The notes: a model not told the origin generated them from the letters alone. 64,000 nucleotides of DNA from an uncultured bacterium (GCA_964554125.1 CAZKNG010000004.1:672-64671); one strand, 5' to 3'; positions 6,627 through 21,941 are shown, counted from the stretch's first letter. Numbers and translations: made by a program.

Positions 6627-8018
6627 ATGAGTGGTCTTTTCGGTGTAGTTTCCAGCGATAGTTGTTCTGAATATCTGCTTTATGGAACGGATTATCATTC
6701 TCATCTCGGCAATGAATTCGGAGGAGCGGCGGTTTTAGGGGAAACTTTTCACCGGCAAATCCACGATATAAGTGACAGCCAGTTCAAATCGAAATTCGAT
6801 AAGGATATTATGGAAATGAGGGGGAAGATGGGAATAGGGGTCGTGAGCGCTGTTGATGAGCAACCTGTATATATGAATTCCAGGTTTGGTCCTTTCTGTC
6901 TCATAATGGATGGAATTATCAATAATTCCCGGGAGCTTGCCTCGGCGCTTCTTGACCGTGGAATCAGTTTCAGTGAAGTAGGGAAGGGTTATGTGAATCT
7001 CGCGGAGCTTACTGCTAAATTGATAACGCAGGGTGACAGCATTGTCAGCGGTATCGAAAAGATGTTCGATCAGATAAACGGTTCCTGTTCACTTCTCCTG
7101 CTGCATAGAGACGGAATCTATGCCGCCAGAGACAGGCACGGGCATTCCTCCCTGGCCGTTGGGAGAAACGGCGATTCTTGGGCGCTGGCTTCTGAAACAT
7201 CCTCCTTTCCCAACCTCAATTTTGAAGGTGAGAAGTTCTTAAGGCCCGGTGAGATCGTTTTGATAAATGAAAAAGGGCTTACGCGGAAAAAGAAGGGTTC
7301 CGACAAAAACCAGATTTGCGCCTTCTTGTGGGTATATACGGGGTTTCCGACTAGCAGGTATGAAGGTATAAATGTTGAGACAGTCAGAGAAAAATGCGGC
7401 AGATTTCTGGCAAAGAGGGATCGTGATATCGATGTGGATGTTGTCGCGGGTGTTCCTGATTCGGGGATTGGCCACGCGGTAGGATACGCTATTGAATCGA
7501 ATAAGCCCTACAGAAGGCCTCTGGTAAAATATACTCCCGGATACGGGCGGAGTTATATTCCCAGTTCACAGAATATGCGGGATCATATCGCCAGAATGAA
7601 ATTGATTCCCAATGAATCTATAATTAGAGGAAACAGAATTGTTATTTGTGAAGATTCGATAGTGAGAGGAACTCAGCTGAAAAATTATACTATCAGGAAG
7701 CTGTGGTCCGCCGGAGCTGAGGAGATCCACGTCAGAGTTGCCTGTCCTCCTCTTATCTTTCCGTGTAAATTCAATTTTTCAACCCGGAGTATCGGCGAAC
7801 TCGCGGCCCGAAGGGCTATAAGAGCAATTGAAGGAGCTGATGTCGGGGATGTCTCAGAATATGTGGATCACACAACAGAGAAGTACGCGGAGATGATAGA
7901 ATGGATAAGAAAGGATCTGAAAGTGACGACTCTGAGATATCAGACGATCGATGATATGATAGAATCGACAGGTATGCCGAGGGGAAAATTGTGTCTGAAC
8001 TGCTGGAACGGTGAATGA
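6627..8018 (+). CDS. PurF-like class-II amidotransferase / PRTase paralog lacking the N-terminal catalytic Cys (Ser2)
   Basis: N-terminus MSGLFGV compared with canonical MCGI. PRTase motif (VICEDSIVRGTQL) and a PurF-like C-terminal region (CPPLIFPCKF). The canonical purF is at 49147. Confidence 0.6.
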   Translation: MSGLFGVVSSDSCSEYLLYGTDYHSHLGNEFGGAAVLGETFHRQIHDISDSQFKSKFDKDIMEMRGKMGIGVVSAVDEQPVYMNSRFGPFCLIMDGIINNSRELASALLDRGISFSEVGKGYVNLAELTAKLITQGDSIVSGIEKMFDQINGSCSLLLLHRDGIYAARDRHGHSSLAVGRNGDSWALASETSSFPNLNFEGEKFLRPGEIVLINEKGLTRKKKGSDKNQICAFLWVYTGFPTSRYEGINVETVREKCGRFLAKRDRDIDVDVVAGVPDSGIGHAVGYAIESNKPYRRPLVKYTPGYGRSYIPSSQNMRDHIARMKLIPNESIIRGNRIVICEDSIVRGTQLKNYTIRKLWSAGAEEIHVRVACPPLIFPCKFNFSTRSIGELAARRAIRAIEGADVGDVSEYVDHTTEKYAEMIEWIRKDLKVTTLRYQTIDDMIESTGMPRGKLCLNCWNGE

Positions 8019-9898: not shown

Positions 9899-10432
9899 CT
9901 AAAATGAGAAACCGCCGGAAATAGTGAAATATTTAGTTGTGCCGTCATCAAATATTATATTAAGGGCTGGTTTGATCTCCCATATTCTTGATTCAGACTG
10001 ATCGATTATTATTCCGCCGCCTAATCTCATCCCAAGATTCATTTCCGAATCATCATCAAAAGCGAAGCGGTAAAAGCCGATCCCCGCCTGTCCGAAATAT
10101 TTATTTGTGCTGCCTGTCGAATCACTTTGTGAAAAGAGATATCTCGCCTGGGGAATAAATTCCATTATCGAAGCTGAACCGTTGCCTTCATCGACTCCCC
10201 ACCTGTTGTAGGCGATCCTTCCTCCCAGGAGTATATTGTCCGTATGTGGGATAAAACCGTCCAGGCCGAAGCATATTCCGGTATTTAAATAATCGCCCGC
10301 ATCGCCGAAAGGTATTGATAGTCCTGCATTGGCGTTAAATTCGATTTGTTCCATAATGCTGTCCGCAGCCAGAGTTGACGCAGGCAGAATAATAATAACG
10401 GCGATCATCAGCAACGCACTTTTATGAATCAT
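9899..10432 (-). CDS. Outer-membrane beta-barrel protein (OmpW/OmpA-like small barrel)
   Basis: Signal peptide. Alternating hydrophobic beta-strand pattern. C-terminal aromatic residue (..GGFSF). Confidence 0.5.
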   Translation of the reverse strand: MIHKSALLMIAVIIILPASTLAADSIMEQIEFNANAGLSIPFGDAGDYLNTGICFGLDGFIPHTDNILLGGRIAYNRWGVDEGNGSASIMEFIPQARYLFSQSDSTGSTNKYFGQAGIGFYRFAFDDDSEMNLGMRLGGGIIIDQSESRIWEIKPALNIIFDDGTTKYFTISGGFSF

Positions 10433-10797
10433 CTTTTTCCCTCCCTTTTGCTCGCACTCTTGTCCGGATAAGAAGTTTCCCCAAGCTTCCTCAAATTAAG
10501 TTGTAGTACAGGGTGCCACGGATTAAAGGAAAAAACAAGTATTCTTTTTTCCTTTCAATCTTACCCCGGACAGGCCCTCAGGGCGGTGAGAAGTTGACCC
10601 TATAAAAGCTTCTGTTTAGCTTGTCTAATGAGAAAAAATCAAATTCAAGCTTCCGGCGCGAACATAAAAAGTGAGAACTCAGAGATATAGTTACAGTGAA
10701 TGTGAAGAATCCGGTTGGAGAACGGTGTAATATTAATTAGAATATATCCTGTAGGTTCTTTAGAACGTAATTAAACAGCCGGGCAGGGAAGTTAAAT

Positions 10798-12519
10798 ATG
10801 TTACCTCCTCTTTTACCTTCGGTAGTGAGACATTTTGTTTACCCTTTTTATAGAGGGTATAGAAAAGACAGGGTCCTTTCTATTCTGAGCGATTTGGAGG
10901 ATAATCAGTGGCTCGGAAAAGAACAGATAGAAGAGATACAATGGAGGAAGCTCAAGAAGCTGTTGAGTTACGTTTCCATCCATGTTCCCTATTACAGGGA
11001 TCTCTTCAGTAACAGGGGAATAGAACCCGATGAGATAGAAAGCCCCGCTGATTTTAAGAATATACCGTATCTGACAAGAAATGTTATTACAAAGAGCAGC
11101 CGTGATCTTATTACAGGAGATCCGCTGATGAAGGGATATGCTTCGAGTACCGGCGGGTCTAACGGTGACCCTCTCTATTTCTACTGTGATCTTGCGGCCG
11201 GTCCCGTCCGCCGTGCCAACACAATCAGGCAGTTCCGCTATGCCGGTATTGATATTGGCGACAGGCAGCTGCGGCTTATGGGAGATCAGCTGGATAGAAC
11301 ATGGAAGGAAAACGCCGCGGCGAAGGTAAAAGATTACTTCAATAATATTAAATTCCTGTCATCGTTTGATATGTCAGACGAAGCGATGAAAGAGTATATC
11401 TATGTTGAACACTTTTTTAAACCCTCTGTTATTGTAGCCTACCCTTCAGCTCTTGCTCTTCTGGCTCATTTTTGTAAGAGGAGGGCTTTGAAGGTTTTTA
11501 AACCGAAAGCCGTTGTTACAAGCGGGGAAATGCTGTACCCGGAGCAGAGGAAGATAATCGAAGAGGTCTTTTCCGCCCCTGTTTTCAACAGATACGGAAC
11601 CAGTCAGTTTTCCAATGTAGCCAGCGAATGTAAACAGCATAAGGGGTTGCATGTAGCGAGTGATCTCTTCTTCGTCGAAGTAATTAACAATAGCGGGAAA
11701 CCGGCTGAAGCGGGCGAAAAGGGGGAGCTGGTCATTACAGACCTGTCTAACTTTTACATGCCCTTTATAAGATATAGAACCGGAGATTATGCGGTTCCGG
11801 CAGGAAGAATTTGTGACTGCGGAATAGGTCTGCCTCTCCTTGAAAGGATTGAAGGACGCAGCTTAAATACTATCAGAACTGCTGAAGGCAAATCTGTCGG
11901 GGGTGCTTTCTGGACTAGACTTTCGAGAACAGTGCCGGGGATAAAGAGATTTCAAATTGAGCAGAAGGGTCTAAACAGCATCAATTACAGAATTGTTACC
12001 GGTCCCGGGTGGAAAGTTGAATTTAAAGATATCCTTGATAGAAAGATCAAGTCATACTGCGGAGATAATTTAAACATTACCTTTCTTGAAGTTGATGACA
12101 TTCCTCTTACACCCTCGGGGAAATCCAGGTTTATTATTCCTGATACCGAAGAAAAACTTGTCATTAAATCCAAGATACACAAGGCAAATATCACCTCGGC
12201 AGAACCTGATATGAATGACTGTCTGTGTATAGACGAAAAACTCATGGAGCTTGCCGATATTTCCGAATATGAAAAGATCCTCATCGTTGATGCCACAAAT
12301 GGAGTCCGTCTCGAAACATTCGCCGTGAAGGCCCCCAGAGATAAAGGTGATATTAAAGCCTGCGGAGCGGTCGCGGGAAAAGTTAACCCGGGGGATGAAA
12401 TAGGTGTAATGGCGTTTACATGGGCGAAGGAAAACGAGGTTGATTTCAGTAATATTCTCGTTGATAAGAGGAACAGGTTCTTACGTTATCTTACAGAATT
12501 TCCAGGGCATAAAATATGA
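10798..12519 (+). CDS. PaaK/CapK-type adenylate-forming ligase fused to a C-terminal degenerate PanD-like (aspartate decarboxylase fold) domain
   Basis: ANL/PaaK motifs SSTGGSNGDP, GELVITDL and YRTGD. The C-terminal ~115 aa align along their whole length with the PanD ORF downstream: KSKIHKA, ILIVDATNGVRLETF, GAVAG, GVMAFTW. Confidence 0.65.
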   Translation: MLPPLLPSVVRHFVYPFYRGYRKDRVLSILSDLEDNQWLGKEQIEEIQWRKLKKLLSYVSIHVPYYRDLFSNRGIEPDEIESPADFKNIPYLTRNVITKSSRDLITGDPLMKGYASSTGGSNGDPLYFYCDLAAGPVRRANTIRQFRYAGIDIGDRQLRLMGDQLDRTWKENAAAKVKDYFNNIKFLSSFDMSDEAMKEYIYVEHFFKPSVIVAYPSALALLAHFCKRRALKVFKPKAVVTSGEMLYPEQRKIIEEVFSAPVFNRYGTSQFSNVASECKQHKGLHVASDLFFVEVINNSGKPAEAGEKGELVITDLSNFYMPFIRYRTGDYAVPAGRICDCGIGLPLLERIEGRSLNTIRTAEGKSVGGAFWTRLSRTVPGIKRFQIEQKGLNSINYRIVTGPGWKVEFKDILDRKIKSYCGDNLNITFLEVDDIPLTPSGKSRFIIPDTEEKLVIKSKIHKANITSAEPDMNDCLCIDEKLMELADISEYEKILIVDATNGVRLETFAVKAPRDKGDIKACGAVAGKVNPGDEIGVMAFTWAKENEVDFSNILVDKRNRFLRYLTEFPGHKI

Positions 12520-12686
12520 TATATCTGTCCGGCGCTTTTAAAGATGCCGGAGATAAACTTTTTCCTCCGGCTTAATAATCAATAGTCTGTCCGGCATTAT
12601 TAATCCTTACTTTCCCTTTGATTTTATGGATAATTTGATATATTTATATCTGTACGCGATCGAAACCGCAAAGATGTGAGTATGTC

Positions 12687-13046
12687 ATGAAACGTATGTT
12701 TTTAAAATCTATGATTCTGAAAGCGAAGGTCACTCAAGCCGATCTTCGTTATGTGGGAAGCATTACGATCGATGAAGATCTTGTTGAGAAAGCGAATCTG
12801 AGTGAAAATGAGAATGTATTGATCGTTGACAAAACAAATGGAAACAGACTCCAGACCTATATAATAATCGGTGAGAGAGGCTCTGGAGTAATTTGCATCA
12901 ACGGTGCCGCGGCTCACCTTGTAGATGAAGGTGACATTGTTGATATCATGGCATTTTCCTGGACCACGGGTGAAGCTCAATCACTCTTTATAAAATTGGA
13001 TGAGAATAATCATTTTTCCAGGTATGTCAAAACGGGTGAGCGCTGA
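12687..13046 (+). CDS. panD: Aspartate 1-decarboxylase proenzyme PanD
   Basis: Canonical PanD: Lys9, His11, the Gly-Ser self-cleavage site (YVGSITID), Arg54, Thr57, Tyr58 (RLQTY), and GAAAHL. Confidence 0.85.
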
Positions 13047-13077
13047 CCCTTCCTACGGTTTCTCAGAAAGGGAATGA

Positions 13078-14214
13078 ATGTTCAAAAGAAGCCTGCGCCT
13101 CTTTGAGCTATGGGGCATCCCGGTGGAAATTCATATCAGCTGGATTCTTATCTTCATACTTGTAACATGGAGCTTTGCCACCGGTGTTTATCCCGAGTCC
13201 TACGGCGGGACTTTCTCTTCCACTCAGTTATGGATCATCTCTTTTCTGACAGCTGTTCTTTTATTCCTGTCGATACTTCTTCATGAGTTCAGTCATTCTG
13301 TTGTTGCTATCCGAAATGGTCTTCCCATCGGGAAAATTACATTATTTATGTTCGGAGGCGTAGCTCAGATGCGCCGTGAGGTTGAAAGTCCTTCCGTGGA
13401 ACTCAAGATGGCCTCGGCGGGACCCGCGATGACCCTTGTGCTTATAGGTGTTTATTACCTTCTGGGCGTAATTTTCAGATCATTCGACACCCTTTTCGTG
13501 TTGTTCAATTCACTCGCGTTTATAAACGGAGCGATTCTTGTTTTCAATATGATTCCGGGATTTCCACTTGACGGCGGAAGAATACTGAGGGCGGTTATCT
13601 GGCGTAAGACAGGCAATCTTCTCAGAGCAACAAAAACAGCCAGCCGGATTGGAAAGGGTTTCGCCTTTTTCCTGATAGGTATGGGCATTATCAGTTTTCT
13701 GGTTAAGGGTAATCTTATAGACGGCATCTGGCTGATGATAATCGGCACTTTTCTGAGACAAGCCGCCGAAAGAAGCTACAAAGCCGTTATTTACCGGGAG
13801 GTCATGGAGAGATTCAAGGTTTCGGATATAGTAAGATATGATGTCGTGACAGTCGGATTGTCAGTTGATCTGCGGACACTTGTCGAGGATTATTTCAAAA
13901 AGCACCCCTTTCAATCTTTTCCCGTAGTGGAGGATGGGGTTCTGGTGGGAATAATCAGACTCGATGATGTTAAGAAGGTCGAGAGAGGAAAGTGGCCTGA
14001 AATAAAGACGGCGGATTTAGTAAACAGGAATATTTCAGATTACGCGATCCGGGCTTTTGATAATGCCGGAAAACTTCTCCGTCTTATACAAGAAAAAAAG
14101 TACGATTCTTTTCCGGTAATCGATGATTATGGAAGATTTACCGGCATTGTAACGAGGAGCGATTTCGAAGAAGCGGTAAGAGTTATGACTTCCATTAGAA
14201 ATTTGCCGGATTAG
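13078..14214 (+). CDS. Site-2 protease family (M50) zinc metalloprotease with C-terminal CBS pair
   Basis: HEFSH zinc motif in TM helix 2. Multiple TM helices. LDG motif (FPLDGGRIL). C-terminal tandem CBS domains. Confidence 0.75.
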   Translation: MFKRSLRLFELWGIPVEIHISWILIFILVTWSFATGVYPESYGGTFSSTQLWIISFLTAVLLFLSILLHEFSHSVVAIRNGLPIGKITLFMFGGVAQMRREVESPSVELKMASAGPAMTLVLIGVYYLLGVIFRSFDTLFVLFNSLAFINGAILVFNMIPGFPLDGGRILRAVIWRKTGNLLRATKTASRIGKGFAFFLIGMGIISFLVKGNLIDGIWLMIIGTFLRQAAERSYKAVIYREVMERFKVSDIVRYDVVTVGLSVDLRTLVEDYFKKHPFQSFPVVEDGVLVGIIRLDDVKKVERGKWPEIKTADLVNRNISDYAIRAFDNAGKLLRLIQEKKYDSFPVIDDYGRFTGIVTRSDFEEAVRVMTSIRNLPD

Positions 14215-14225
14215 TTTAGATAAAG

Positions 14226-16064
14226 CTATATCATCCCTGAATCGGTGTAGTTTTCTATTGAGCTTGAAGAGCTGCTCAGGTCTTCGATGATCGATGTGAG
14301 TGTAAACAGGTGATCAAAGCCGAACTTGCCCAGTTTCCCGGTGTTTTCTGAAATTCCGCCGAGCGACAGATATTCGCCGATTGAATGGCAGTTTTGAATC
14401 TGGCGGTTGAAGCATTCTACTATCTTTGAATTCTTCCCATACGGTCCTATTACATCGTTGGTCTGTTTTACCTTATTTCTTAACAACTTTTTCAGAGACG
14501 CGGGGAGGATGTAATACAATTCTCTCGCGTAAAGATATAACAGATATTTTTTAGAAGATATATCGAACCCCCAGTTGGCGTTACGGACAGCGGATGCTTC
14601 AGGTGAAAGTTTGAGCAGGAACTCCCGGTAGAGTTTGTATTTTGCTTTATGCTTATCCGGGCAATTCATGACAAAGTTAAAGAAGTGTATGGAATTAAAA
14701 GGCGAGACAGTCCAGAAGTAGAATCTGTTGCGGTCTTCTCCCTCAGATGTCCACTTCAGATTACGCTGATTGATTATAAAATGAACGTATTTTCCGTCCA
14801 TCCCTCTCTCGGGATACGCCGCGAGTTCTTCTCTTATTTCAGCTATAATATCATTTTCCCTGATCCCCGTGACAGCGGCTGTAATATCAAGTGGAACGAC
14901 ATGGTTCGTCTTGATAATAAACCGGGTCAATTCGTGTGTGTCTTTGAGTTTCTTAAAAGGTCTGGAATCGGGGATTATTAATCCCCCGCCCTCTCCGGTG
15001 AAATATGTAATTCTGTCTCCCCATTCGGTCCGTATCGCGTTGAAATAGGGTATGGAAAAACTCATTCCCAGGAAATTCATTCCATTCTTCATTCTGAGAA
15101 GTTTTAGAACCTCCTCTCCCGTAGCCTGTCCGATTTCAAAGAGTTTCCAGTCGAAATTCAGGACTTCGGATAATTCCCTCGCGATATCAATATCCTTCGC
15201 CGCTGTTTTATAGTAGTCGAGGAAGGTGGCGCCCGAGAAATCGATATCGATCCCTGTAAGGGCGGAGGCGACTGCTCTGGAATCCAGCCCGCCGCTCTGG
15301 GTGATTATATTCTTATCTACGGGGTCAGCCATTTTACCGCACATATCTGAGAAGATGGCAACCATCCGGTCAGCGGATTCACCTACACTGAGCCCGCGAT
15401 TGTTTTTCGAATCGTAATTGAAATTATAAAGTGTTTCTATTGAAACTCTATCCGATTTTCCATCTGATCTGATCACAGAAGCGGGCGGGAGGCGGAAGGT
15501 GTTTTTTAGCAGCGTTCTTCTTCCAAGGGGGAATCCCAGAAGCAGAAATTGAGAGGATCCGGTTCTATCGAAACCTGTTCCACCGGAGAAATGATGGATG
15601 AATCTGAGTTCTCTTGAGACTGTTAGTGTTCCCGCGTCTTCATTCCAGTATAGCGGAAGGCGTCCCAGAGCGTCATTTAGTATCCACAAAGAAGATGATT
15701 TCCGATGAAGTATGAATATTATAAAATCTCCATTTGTATCCATAAGCCACCGAGTGATCTTTTCTCTTGAGCTGCCGGAATTTTCTATAAACAGTTTGAC
15801 GAGTTTTCTGATCTCAGAAGAGATCTCCGAATGAGTTTTCCCGTATATCTTTCCCTCAAGGCAGATAAAGTATTCGCCATTCTCTATGACCGTCACCGGA
15901 TATTTCGCGTGACTCGTGCAGCATAGGAAATATCTGTCATCTTCGAGCAGTATATTCCGTTCGATCCATTTTTCGTGTATAACCGAATCCAGAGCTTTCA
16001 AGCTCTGCGCCTTTCTTTTTTTCAGCCCTCCGACGGGCTTATAGATAAAACTTATTCCAGGCAT
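14226..16064 (-). CDS. Asparagine-synthetase-like amidotransferase lacking catalytic Cys (Pro2); PP-loop intact
   Basis: N-terminus MPGISFIY compared with canonical MCGI. PP-loop SGGLDS present. 612 aa with an AsnB-type two-domain layout. Confidence 0.65.
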   Translation of the reverse strand: MPGISFIYKPVGGLKKRKAQSLKALDSVIHEKWIERNILLEDDRYFLCCTSHAKYPVTVIENGEYFICLEGKIYGKTHSEISSEIRKLVKLFIENSGSSREKITRWLMDTNGDFIIFILHRKSSSLWILNDALGRLPLYWNEDAGTLTVSRELRFIHHFSGGTGFDRTGSSQFLLLGFPLGRRTLLKNTFRLPPASVIRSDGKSDRVSIETLYNFNYDSKNNRGLSVGESADRMVAIFSDMCGKMADPVDKNIITQSGGLDSRAVASALTGIDIDFSGATFLDYYKTAAKDIDIARELSEVLNFDWKLFEIGQATGEEVLKLLRMKNGMNFLGMSFSIPYFNAIRTEWGDRITYFTGEGGGLIIPDSRPFKKLKDTHELTRFIIKTNHVVPLDITAAVTGIRENDIIAEIREELAAYPERGMDGKYVHFIINQRNLKWTSEGEDRNRFYFWTVSPFNSIHFFNFVMNCPDKHKAKYKLYREFLLKLSPEASAVRNANWGFDISSKKYLLYLYARELYYILPASLKKLLRNKVKQTNDVIGPYGKNSKIVECFNRQIQNCHSIGEYLSLGGISENTGKLGKFGFDHLFTLTSIIEDLSSSSSSIENYTDSGMI

Positions 16065-20843: not shown

Positions 20844-21941
20844 TTAAAACTTAAACGGTCGCCGGCGTTTTGTTTCCTCGATCAATCTTAACATCTCCTC
20901 CTCCACGCGTTTCATATTTACCTCCCACAGGCCGCGTTCTTTGATTCTGCTTATATTTATTTTACGCGCTTTCCGAGTAAAATTTCTATCTTTAACCGTT
21001 TTGACTACAGATTCCGCGAGTATGCGGGGGGAGCCGGCAGGTACTATCATTCCGTTTTCCCCATCCTCGATCCATTCCCTGTTTCCTTCAAGGTCGGTTA
21101 CGATAGGGGTCAAACCGCTAGCCATCGCTTCGAGCAGGGAAACGGAAGTGGAATCGGAAAGGGATGTTGATATATATATATCGCTTTTTCTAAGCTCCTC
21201 TGAGAGTTTTTCAGGGCTGAGTCTTCCCTTAAAGGTGAATTTTCCGCCTACCCCGAGGCTATCAACTTTTTTCTCGAGATTTTCACGTTCAGGTCCGTCC
21301 CCGCATATAATAAAGTAAGCGTTTATCTCTTTTAAAATTTTGGGGGAGGCTTCTATTAAGAGGTCTATATTGTATATACTATAAAGATTACGAGTGCTTA
21401 TTATCAATGTTTTACCGTTACCGGCTGATGGTTCGGTGTTTTCATCGGATGGATAGAAGAGATTCTTATCTATACCGAAGTATATTTTGAGGATATTTTT
21501 CTTCATAGCGCCTGCCTCAGCGGCAATTCTTGAAAGATCCTCAGAGTCAGCCGTGATTAAATCGGCTTTTCCAATCGAGTAATTGATCTGCAGTTTATGG
21601 ATGAAATGTTTTCTGTAATCCACGAGAAGGTCGGAACCGAGAGCTGATAAAACGAGGGGTCTGTAGCCGCATAAGGCCCCGATCAATCCGTATCCGGTTA
21701 TATAGAGTGAGTTGACAATATCGGGCCGGAACGCTCTGAGTCTTTTCTTTACTGCCCCAAGTGATGAGAGGTATCCGAGAAGATCTGTGGGCAGGTGTTT
21801 CCTCAGATCTATTACAGGCACGGGGGAATTTACTGTTTCTTCGAAGGATAGCAGAAGAACTTCGTGGCCCTGTCTCTGGAAGAACCCTCCCCAGCGTTTT
21901 ATATGATTAAGTGAGCCGTCTCCTAGAATAGCTAGCCGCAT
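20844..21941 (-). CDS. Glycosyltransferase family 4 (GT-B, group 1)
   Basis: C-terminal EAMASGLTPIVTD...GENG block typical of GT4. Confidence 0.7.
   Translation of the reverse strand: MRLAILGDGSLNHIKRWGGFFQRQGHEVLLLSFEETVNSPVPVIDLRKHLPTDLLGYLSSLGAVKKRLRAFRPDIVNSLYITGYGLIGALCGYRPLVLSALGSDLLVDYRKHFIHKLQINYSIGKADLITADSEDLSRIAAEAGAMKKNILKIYFGIDKNLFYPSDENTEPSAGNGKTLIISTRNLYSIYNIDLLIEASPKILKEINAYFIICGDGPERENLEKKVDSLGVGGKFTFKGRLSPEKLSEELRKSDIYISTSLSDSTSVSLLEAMASGLTPIVTDLEGNREWIEDGENGMIVPAGSPRILAESVVKTVKDRNFTRKARKINISRIKERGLWEVNMKRVEEEMLRLIEETKRRRPFKF

Follow-up and report, generated by a model that had tools for sequence, protein, structure and literature searches.

Complementary residue losses in a ligase-fused PanD-fold domain and its neighbouring PanD suggest an aspartate decarboxylase site divided between two paralogs

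In a stretch of 64,000 nucleotides from an uncultured bacterium (GCA_964554125.1, CAZKNG010000004.1:672-64671; this whole stretch is called the window in the following), a gene for a CapK/PaaK-type adenylate-forming ligase with a C-terminal PanD-fold pseudo-subunit (10798..12519, plus strand, 573 amino acids (aa)) is followed by a gene for an aspartate 1-decarboxylase (ADC, PanD) of 119 aa (12687..13046, plus strand). The fused PanD-fold domain, here designated F, and the partner PanD, here designated S, appear to hold complementary halves of one active site, the cofactor half being that of S and the half which acts in trans being that of F. This conclusion is well supported by sequence and mechanistically unproven; it is drawn because the residues lost from S are those that F keeps and because Lys9 and Arg54 act from the adjacent subunit in characterised PanD enzymes. 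On balance it is probable, by a small measure, that F and S form a hetero-oligomer which makes beta-alanine at the ligase, and that the ligase attaches this beta-alanine to a glycoconjugate through an amide bond.

Both open reading frames (ORFs) are real, and they are separated by a spacer of 167 bp (12520..12686), for which a preliminary description of the same DNA had given 170 bp. This description had also proposed a PanD fold for the C-terminal region of the fusion protein, and rightly so: the last ~120 aa match positions 5-113 of the 115 positions in the Pfam profile Asp_decarbox, with a score of 86.6 bits (cutoff 25), and F taken as an isolated domain (aa 451-573; 12148..12516, plus strand) reaches 91 bits. 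A phmmer search of PDB sequences with F found the ADC of M. tuberculosis (2c45, E=1e-14), and F aligns to S with 40% identity and a single gap (E=1e-25). The score against the panD model TIGR00223 is 65-70 bits, below the cutoff of 106. Residues of F were numbered by an alignment to the PanD proteins of E. coli and B. subtilis which is free of gaps in its first 100 columns. On this basis the self-processing site Gly24-Ser25 is replaced by Asp474-Cys475 (12217..12222), the proton donor Tyr58 by Phe508, Tyr22 by Met472 and Asn72 by Cys522 (12361..12363). Kept are Lys459 and His461, the counterparts of Lys9 and His11 (Lys459-Ile460-His461, 12172..12180), as well as Arg504 (Arg54) and Thr507 (Thr57), which lie together with Phe508 at 12307..12321; the codons at all of these coordinates, on the plus strand, were verified. 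The loss of the Gly-Ser site and of Tyr58 and the retention of the Lys9, Arg54 and Thr57 equivalents had already been recognised in the preliminary description; the loss of Tyr22 and Asn72 and the retention of His11 had been overlooked there. Among 40 orthologous F domains, Asp24 is found in 40/40, position 25 is Cys in 33, Gly in four and Ser in three, Phe58 is present in 36/40 and Thr57 in 34/40. Because of Asp24, the Cys, Gly or Ser at position 25 and the loss of Asn72, F is, judged from its residues, not a pyruvoyl enzyme.

The partner S, the sole PanD in the window, scores 129.8 bits against Asp_decarbox (cutoff 25) and 127.3 bits against TIGR00223, above the cutoff of 106. It had been described as retaining every catalytic feature, and this has to be corrected. 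S reads K-S-M-I-L-K-A at the place of the canonical K-S-K-I-H-R-A, so that Met9-Ile10-Leu11 (12711..12719, plus strand) stands for Lys9-x-His11, two residues that are invariant in 125/125 canonical PanDs. In addition, S carries Asp86 (12942..12944, plus strand), a clade-specific residue, where 83% of the 125 canonical proteins carry Ile. Gly24-Ser25, the self-processing site from which the pyruvoyl cofactor originates (12756..12761, plus strand), and Arg54, Thr57 and Tyr58 (12846..12860, plus strand) are kept, as are Tyr22, Asn72 and Gly73-Ala75; the codons at these S coordinates were likewise verified. Across 35 S proteins, position 9 is Met in 34 and Ala in one, position 11 is Leu in 27, Met in six and otherwise different, and Gly24-Ser25, Thr57, Tyr58 and Asn72 are each present in 35/35. 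The 120 nearest homologs of S all have hydrophobic residues at positions 9 and 11 and Asp86; Gly24 is found in 120/120 and Ser25 in 119/120 of them, and the set Tyr22/Gly24/Ser25/Arg54/Thr57/Tyr58/Asn72 is intact with single exceptions at Tyr22 and Ser25. Neither polypeptide alone is thus, by these sequence features, a PanD with all defining properties, because S lacks Lys9 and His11 and because F lacks the processing site and Tyr58 and stays below the equivalog cutoff.

The reciprocal character of the losses is most evident in a residue table comprising the 125 canonical PanDs, the 40 F domains and the 35 S proteins, in which 25 positions are conserved to at least 85% in the canonical set. 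Exactly two of these positions, Lys9 and His11, were lost by S. F lost Tyr22, Gly24, Ser25, Tyr58, Ile60 and Asn72 and in part Ala75/Ala76, and kept Lys9, His11 and Arg54 in 40/40 domains each. Among the best 150 representatives of 1.84 billion protein clusters, Lys9 and His11 are otherwise essentially universal, and only P0205 and P0251 combine a lost Lys9 with an intact processing site; P0205 is among the closest relatives of S and P0251 sits in an F/S cassette. A third protein of these 150, the degenerate P0315, likewise carries Leu9 and lies outside the set with inspected context. The location of the residues concerned is known from the structural literature. The active site of ADC is formed at the dimer interface: the other subunit provides Lys9, which makes an ion pair with the alpha-carboxylate, and Arg54, which confers specificity, and the primary subunit contributes Pyr25, Thr57 and Tyr58 (PMC3314653). 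The contribution of Arg54 from the adjacent subunit and the position of the site at the subunit interface, with Ala74/Ala75 as contacts of the own subunit, were also reported elsewhere (PMC6969166). Malonate was found ion-paired with Lys9 and Arg54, Thr57 is needed for processing and Asn72 hydrogen-bonds Ser25 in the zymogen (PMC3975893). His11 would lie on the same face as Lys9, because the two are two residues apart along one strand. An apparent mention of His11 in PMC6969166 was discarded, since the residue meant there is His119.

The fusion is widespread in public data. Its architecture was found in more than 100 clusters (90% identity) from independent NCBI, JGI, ENA and Logan assemblies, and the carriers are mostly Krumholzibacteriota; named examples are metagenome-assembled genomes (MAGs) of Krumholzibacteriota/-ia, 'Latescibacterota' and 'Eisenbacteria'. 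In 106 fusion homologs of at least 490 aa, Lys9, His11 and Arg54 are each present in 105, Asp24 in 102 and Phe58 in 94, so the substitutions which the preliminary description had thought might turn out to be a sequencing artefact recur in most of them. The chance that a frameshift or a missed stop joined two genes, or that F is a decaying pseudogene, is therefore practically negligible, and this reading was rejected on grounds of recurrence and conservation: the same 573-aa architecture occurs in all these clusters from independent assemblies, F is under constraint (Lys9, His11, Arg54 and Asp24 at 100%, n=40, with a mean F-F identity of 58%), the AlphaFold2 (AF2) model is confident across the junction and the domain, and no point in favour of an artefact was found.

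F and S seem to be sister lineages. In a rough tree of 200 tips (BLOSUM62 neighbour-joining, ~100 columns, midpoint-rooted), F and S are each monophyletic and form sister clades whose common ancestor holds only F and S (75/200 tips); both share the derived residues Trp92 and Phe114. This topology together with the shared residues agrees with a single duplication after which the two copies degenerated reciprocally. The genome scan covered 41 fusion loci (L001-L043, two of these numbers being loci without a PanD-fold domain). In 34/41 loci S is the next gene downstream of F and has the same orientation, which bears out the conservation of neighbourhood that had been suggested for checking; two further loci have S at distances of 1.2 and 3.7 kb. 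Look-ups starting from S found F directly upstream in L081, L082, L093, L094 and L096. In the assembly CAZPAH01, one locus (L083) consists of GT4 glycosyltransferase, deacetylase, S and an M50 metalloprotease without F, and F stands alone at another (L014), so the pair is kept even when unlinked. All Lys9-lacking PanDs with inspected context are paired with F. A metagenome scan meant for S-type PanDs returned 79 canonical PanD loci, which served as controls, and a single S-type, Lys9-lacking protein (L096), which has the fusion directly upstream. Two fusion paralogs are present in one assembly (JAGLYV01, MAG RS_13_38; L012 and L018), of which the L018 copy is without an adjacent PanD. A different conserved gene pair, of ~390 and 430 aa, was observed downstream on the opposite strand in L014, L017 and L018.

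Some further PanD-fold proteins are of interest beside these clades. A divergent pair occurs in a MAG labelled Nitrospira japonica (L033), with F at 9992-11692 and S at 15412-15768. Its F retains Tyr58 and Asn72 and has Asp24-Cys25; its S, which carries Ala9, Phe11 and Thr86, lies 3.7 kb downstream of F just after GT4 and deacetylase genes. This pair may be an intermediate state or belong to a mis-binned contig. Lone 'dead' PanD-fold proteins are P0248 (148 aa, L088 1102-1548) and P0300 (136 aa, L095 3238-3648), which keep Lys9, His11 and Arg54 and are without a Gly-Ser site. Their contexts are unrelated to the cassette, one being located beside TauE and a solute-binding protein and the other beside a pentapeptide-repeat protein, and the short contigs which carry them show neither a ligase nor a partner PanD.

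The N-terminal 450 aa of the fusion (10798..12147, plus strand) were confirmed as a PaaK/CapK-type ligase of the ANL superfamily with a PaaK-like fold. A phmmer search of the PDB gave PaaK 4r1l (E=7e-30), and Foldseek with the AF2 model gave 4r1m, 2y27 and 2y4o (E~1e-29, template modelling score normalised to the target 0.64-0.69). The model of the whole fusion has a mean predicted local distance difference test (pLDDT) value of 85.8, with ~92 over the PanD-fold domain. The database protein P0001 is 100% identical to the 573-aa fusion and carries PF27533 (CapK_C) and PF02261, the former, a precomputed assignment, supporting the CapK/PaaK type. The best NCBIfam matches are the DVU_1553 family, FlxY, PaaK and F390 synthetase, and none of them comes near its cutoff: 135.8 bits for the DVU1553 family (cutoff 300), 129.3 for FlxY (520), and for the PaaK equivalogs TIGR02155 and NF041878 75 bits (646) and 97.8 bits (700). 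The ligase is accordingly best described, on the basis of these scores, as a relative of the PaaK family and not as a PaaK ortholog, and the substrate cannot be transferred from those families. Several segments which can be assigned to the adenylation motifs of ANL enzymes are present: the P-loop SSTGGSNGDP (aa 116-125; 11143..11172), Y266-G267 (A5), T328-G329-D330 (A7), the hinge G353-R354 (A8) and G441-K442 within the A10 motif P-S-G-K (aa 439-442; 12112..12123), the P-loop and A10 codons on the plus strand having been verified. All of them are invariant or near-invariant among 25 orthologs, including T118, G123 and P125 of the P-loop, which are invariant or nearly so, the invariant G441 and the nearly invariant K442. 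The catalytic Lys442 of A10 precedes the PanD-fold domain by only ~9 residues. A sub-lineage of shorter fusions (~508 aa; P0093, P0100, P0102 and similar; L038 9968-11521, L041 3073-4608) is without ~64 residues corresponding to aa ~368-431 of the window protein and has thereby lost the greater part of the ANL C-terminal subdomain. Its members still possess the PanD-fold domain as well as the A10 Gly-Lys motif.

Hints on the role of the ligase come from its gene context. In ~22/41 loci a GT4 gene and a gene for a NodB-type deacetylase of ~400 aa end few bases before the fusion, giving the cassette order GT4, deacetylase, F, S and M50 metalloprotease with CBS domains (M50/CBS); in L091 a compact cassette is set among housekeeping genes. 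The deacetylase belongs to PF01522 (Polysacc_deac_1) and is weakly PgaB-like. In our reading of the sequence it appears to have no obvious signal peptide, its N-terminus running directly into the catalytic domain. The GT4 protein has weak, sub-cutoff matches to BshA and MshA. The nearest relatives consisting of the ligase only (53-58% identity, ~450 aa, no PanD) are encoded beside a deacetylase, a GT4 and a Wzx-type flippase; more distant ones are found on plasmids in glycosyltransferase clusters, and one is annotated 'CapK'. A conserved protein of ~870 aa, which has no Pfam or NCBIfam match, is encoded in the closest PanD-less relatives (L084 8367-10991 and L086 6712-9312, both on the minus strand), where its gene separates the CapK-like ligase gene from the genes for deacetylase and GT4. 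PanC was found near 0/48 F/S loci within flanks of up to 10 kb on either side, versus 27/79 of the canonical control loci, and a CapK-like ligase near 0/79 of these controls. The context therefore points to glycoconjugate modification and not to pantothenate synthesis, given the GT4 and deacetylase genes upstream in most orthologs and the lack of PanC within the flanks. Functional data on such CapK-like proteins were found solely for VpsH of V. cholerae, which is itself PaaK/CapK-like; when it is deleted, the glycine amide on a uronic acid of the lipid-linked intermediate of Vibrio polysaccharide (VPS) is lost (PMC13463779).

According to the favoured explanation, S would process itself and carry the pyruvoyl cofactor, and F would supply Lys9, His11 and Arg54 from the position of the adjacent subunit. 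A mixed F/S ring would restore interfaces with the pyruvoyl group of S and Lys9 and Arg54 of F, and the reverse interfaces would be dead; an alternating S-F-S-F tetramer, to name one example of an arrangement, would possess two live sites. The conversion of L-aspartate to beta-alanine would require that S be docked on the ligase, which in turn would amide-link the product to a glycoconjugate built by the upstream GT4 and the NodB-type deacetylase. The preliminary description had already seen in the locus a module which makes and ligates beta-alanine, and this is still the most reasonable reading; its picture of a fully competent PanD beside an inert binding domain does not stand. Its suggestion that the dead domain might recruit a PanD oligomer to the ligase gains support, in a version which goes further than the original one, from the reciprocal loss and retention of Lys9 and His11. 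F, for which a purely non-catalytic binding of substrate had been put forward, is more plausibly the half that S lacks of the decarboxylase site. For the direction of the ligase reaction, beta-alanine acting as the amine which attacks an adenylated sugar carboxylate or another carboxylate comes close to an even chance and is favoured by VpsH, by the PanC-PanD fusions treated below and by the habit of the PaaK family to adenylate non-amino acids. The opposite direction, in which adenylated beta-alanine acylates a sugar amine exposed by the deacetylase, is possible with somewhat lower expectation; in its favour are the tight linkage of deacetylase and ligase and a gene logic like that of mycothiol and bacillithiol.

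A more far-reaching version can be put forward only tentatively. The system would then be the first bacterial obligate hetero-oligomeric pyruvoyl enzyme which arose by reciprocal half-site degeneration, with beta-alanine passed straight into a sugar amide and a new product. If this tentative version held, the acceptor might be a de-N-acetylated or a uronic sugar and the organisms would be Krumholzibacteriota and related uncultured lineages. The product could, on the same tentative footing, be an undescribed beta-alanyl glycoconjugate or else a small molecule similar to bacillithiol or mycothiol, formed by GT4, deacetylase and ligase. Literature searches for this architecture, for heteromeric PanD, for PanD-like fused domains and for beta-alanine metabolism in Krumholzibacteriota yielded no earlier description, in agreement with the novelty that had been presumed from the outset.

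Several observations weigh against the hetero-oligomer. Lys9 and Arg54 are marked as residues of the adjacent subunit in PMC3314653, where His11 is not assigned. The split is imperfect, as S keeps Arg54 of the trans side and F keeps Thr57 of the pyruvoyl side in 34/40 domains. A second F without adjacent S exists in some genomes (L018, L023, L034). Covariation between F and S over 35 paired loci was uninformative, the top scores being phylogenetic noise; a single suggestive case, S Met11 with F Ser72 in 6/6 and in two clades, is not conclusive. In the own clade of the window (the window and L001-L005) neither a GT4 nor a deacetylase gene stands beside the fusion, so that the glycoconjugate context of the window is borrowed from orthologs; the nearest GT4 in the window is located at 20844-21941 on the other strand. 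Finally, the literature search gave no mutational data which show Lys9 or His11 to be indispensable, and for this reason a hydrophobic pocket near the leaving carboxylate could in principle still allow decarboxylation in a homotetramer of S. Some residues fixed within the clades, namely Asp24 in F and Asp86, Asn43 and Met71 in S, as well as the charge swap at position 2 (Glu in F versus Lys in S), may specify a hetero-interface, which is speculation.

The last of these objections leads to an alternative in which S works on its own as a homotetrameric decarboxylase whose pocket has been remodelled (Met9, Leu11, Asp86), perhaps with altered kinetics or an altered substrate, and F is independent and non-catalytic, binding aspartate or beta-alanine by Lys9, His11, Arg54 and Thr57 as a sensor, as an amine-substrate site or as an oligomeriser of the ligase. 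Such an arrangement would agree with the whole processing and proton-donor machinery kept in S, with its score above the TIGR00223 cutoff, with the conserved ligand-contacting residues of F and with the lone dead proteins P0248 and P0300, from which it follows that PanD-fold pseudo-proteins can have other roles. We nevertheless judge it unlikely: it leaves unexplained why the two losses of S are just residues found at 100% in F, on opposite sides of one interface, and why Lys9-lacking PanDs with inspected context were found only together with F, and it has to account for the replacement of two residues which no canonical PanD in the table has given up. It is still less probable, and indeed rather improbable, that F and S together are the PanD of the pantothenate pathway in this lineage and that the ligase is a non-orthologous replacement of PanC which joins pantoate and beta-alanine. 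Natural PanC-PanD fusions of the same domain order elsewhere, the missing PanC at the F/S loci and the status of S as the only PanD in the window would be in line with this idea; the absence of PanC, however, refers to the flanks and is uninformative for the rest of the genome. Moreover, the fusion is embedded in a GT4 and deacetylase cassette in most orthologs, the closest ligase-only relatives accompany GT4, deacetylase and flippase genes without any PanD, the more distant ones reside in glycosyltransferase clusters, and no panB or panE context was seen. The hetero-oligomeric decarboxylase stays the favoured explanation.

Among known systems, canonical PanD (PF02261, TIGR00223) is a homotetramer with the same fold as F and S, and S resembles it in Gly24-Ser25, Thr57, Tyr58 and Asn72. 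Its interface site also receives Lys9 and Arg54 in trans; here, however, no single polypeptide has the complete site, F is covalently joined to a ligase, and the context consists of glycosyltransferase and deacetylase genes instead of panBC. The nearest concept is that of the trypanosomatid S-adenosylmethionine decarboxylase (AdoMetDC) with its prozyme (PMC5201418) and of the trypanosomatid deoxyhypusine synthase (DHS) (PMC3663545), in which an impaired active paralog requires a dead one as its partner. AdoMetDC is pyruvoyl-dependent too, and DHS is a heterotetramer of impaired and dead subunits. F and S are similar to these systems in being sister genes which are adjacent in most loci and co-present when unlinked. 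The trypanosomatid systems, on the other hand, are eukaryotic, unfused and experimentally proven, whereas F and S are known here from sequence. Furthermore, the prozyme acts allosterically by relieving autoinhibition, whereas the F/S pattern suggests a direct sharing of active-site residues.

For the ligase, VpsH is comparable in its PaaK/CapK-like fold and in its context of glycan biosynthesis with GT4 enzymes; it is genetically required to amide-link glycine to the carboxylate of a uronic acid on a lipid-linked intermediate (PMC13463779). It differs in having no decarboxylase domain and in using a free proteinogenic amino acid, the likeness is one of description, and the chemistry of VpsH is deduced from genetics. 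Two natural PanC-PanD fusions, P0292 (433 aa) and P0345 (435 aa), consist of Pantoate_ligase followed by a canonical Asp_decarbox. They place an adenylating ligase which consumes beta-alanine N-terminal to a PanD, in the same order and with the same logic of making the compound where it is used. PanC, though, is an unrelated ligase fold, and its PanD is canonical (Lys9, His11, Gly24, Ser25, Tyr58, Asn72) and needs no partner. Other fusions of canonical PanD are P0363 (457 aa, with a KAS-III-like C-terminus) and P0339 (385 aa, with FAD_binding_2). The pathways of mycothiol and bacillithiol consist of a GT4 enzyme (MshA/BshA), a deacetylase (MshB/BshB) and an ATP-dependent amino-acid ligase (MshC/BshC). 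The compact cassette has the same three-step gene logic of GT4, deacetylase and ATP-dependent ligase, yet its deacetylase is NodB/PgaB-like and not LmbE-like, its ligase is PaaK-like and not CysRS-like, and beta-alanine formed on the spot would serve as the amino acid.

PanD is a textbook case of a self-processing homotetramer and, by way of pyrazinamide, a drug target. If its site is indeed split between two paralogs in nature, it would become possible to test cleanly which residues act in trans, and the split would be a rare prokaryotic pseudoenzyme complementation, a phenomenon best known so far from the trypanosomatid AdoMetDC and DHS. With the complementing half tethered to a ligase, beta-alanine production might be confined to the point of use, a principle which is of interest for metabolic channelling and for the engineering of beta-alanine pathways. 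The same reading, if true, would give a testable function to the CapK-like ligases, which are widespread in polysaccharide loci and almost uncharacterised, and it leads one to expect that an uncultured phylum makes a new glycoconjugate which bears beta-alanine. There is also a problem of annotation, as S is entered in public records as a plain PanD, and the fusion of 573 aa as either 'aspartate 1-decarboxylase' or 'phenylacetate-CoA ligase'.

The remaining features of the locus are less closely connected with F and S. Scans of 10300-14400 revealed no convincing terminator and no Rfam element in the 167-bp spacer between the two genes, and no riboswitch in the whole of this region (Rfam and promoter/terminator scans). 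Downstream of S follows a conserved neighbour, the gene for an M50 (site-2-type) metalloprotease with CBS domains (13078..14214, plus strand; Pfam assignment on the ortholog of L004). An M50/CBS gene follows S in at least 20 loci and in addition in L081-L083, L092 and L093, among which L083 is a locus without the fusion; copies elsewhere are located at 6388-7533 in L081, 6399-7505 in L083 and 12217-13344 in L092. A conserved ORF of 54-63 aa on the opposite strand comes after the M50 gene in L081, L082, L083, L092 and L093 and is not present in the window. The region is flanked by two divergent proteins with a class-II glutamine amidotransferase domain (14226-16064, minus strand, and 6627-8018, plus strand), neither of which is conserved beside the cassette in other loci. 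One of them is asparagine-synthase-like (612 aa, TIGR01536 at 36.9 bits only), and the other is amidophosphoribosyltransferase-like, with GATase_7 and a weak match to Pribosyltran.

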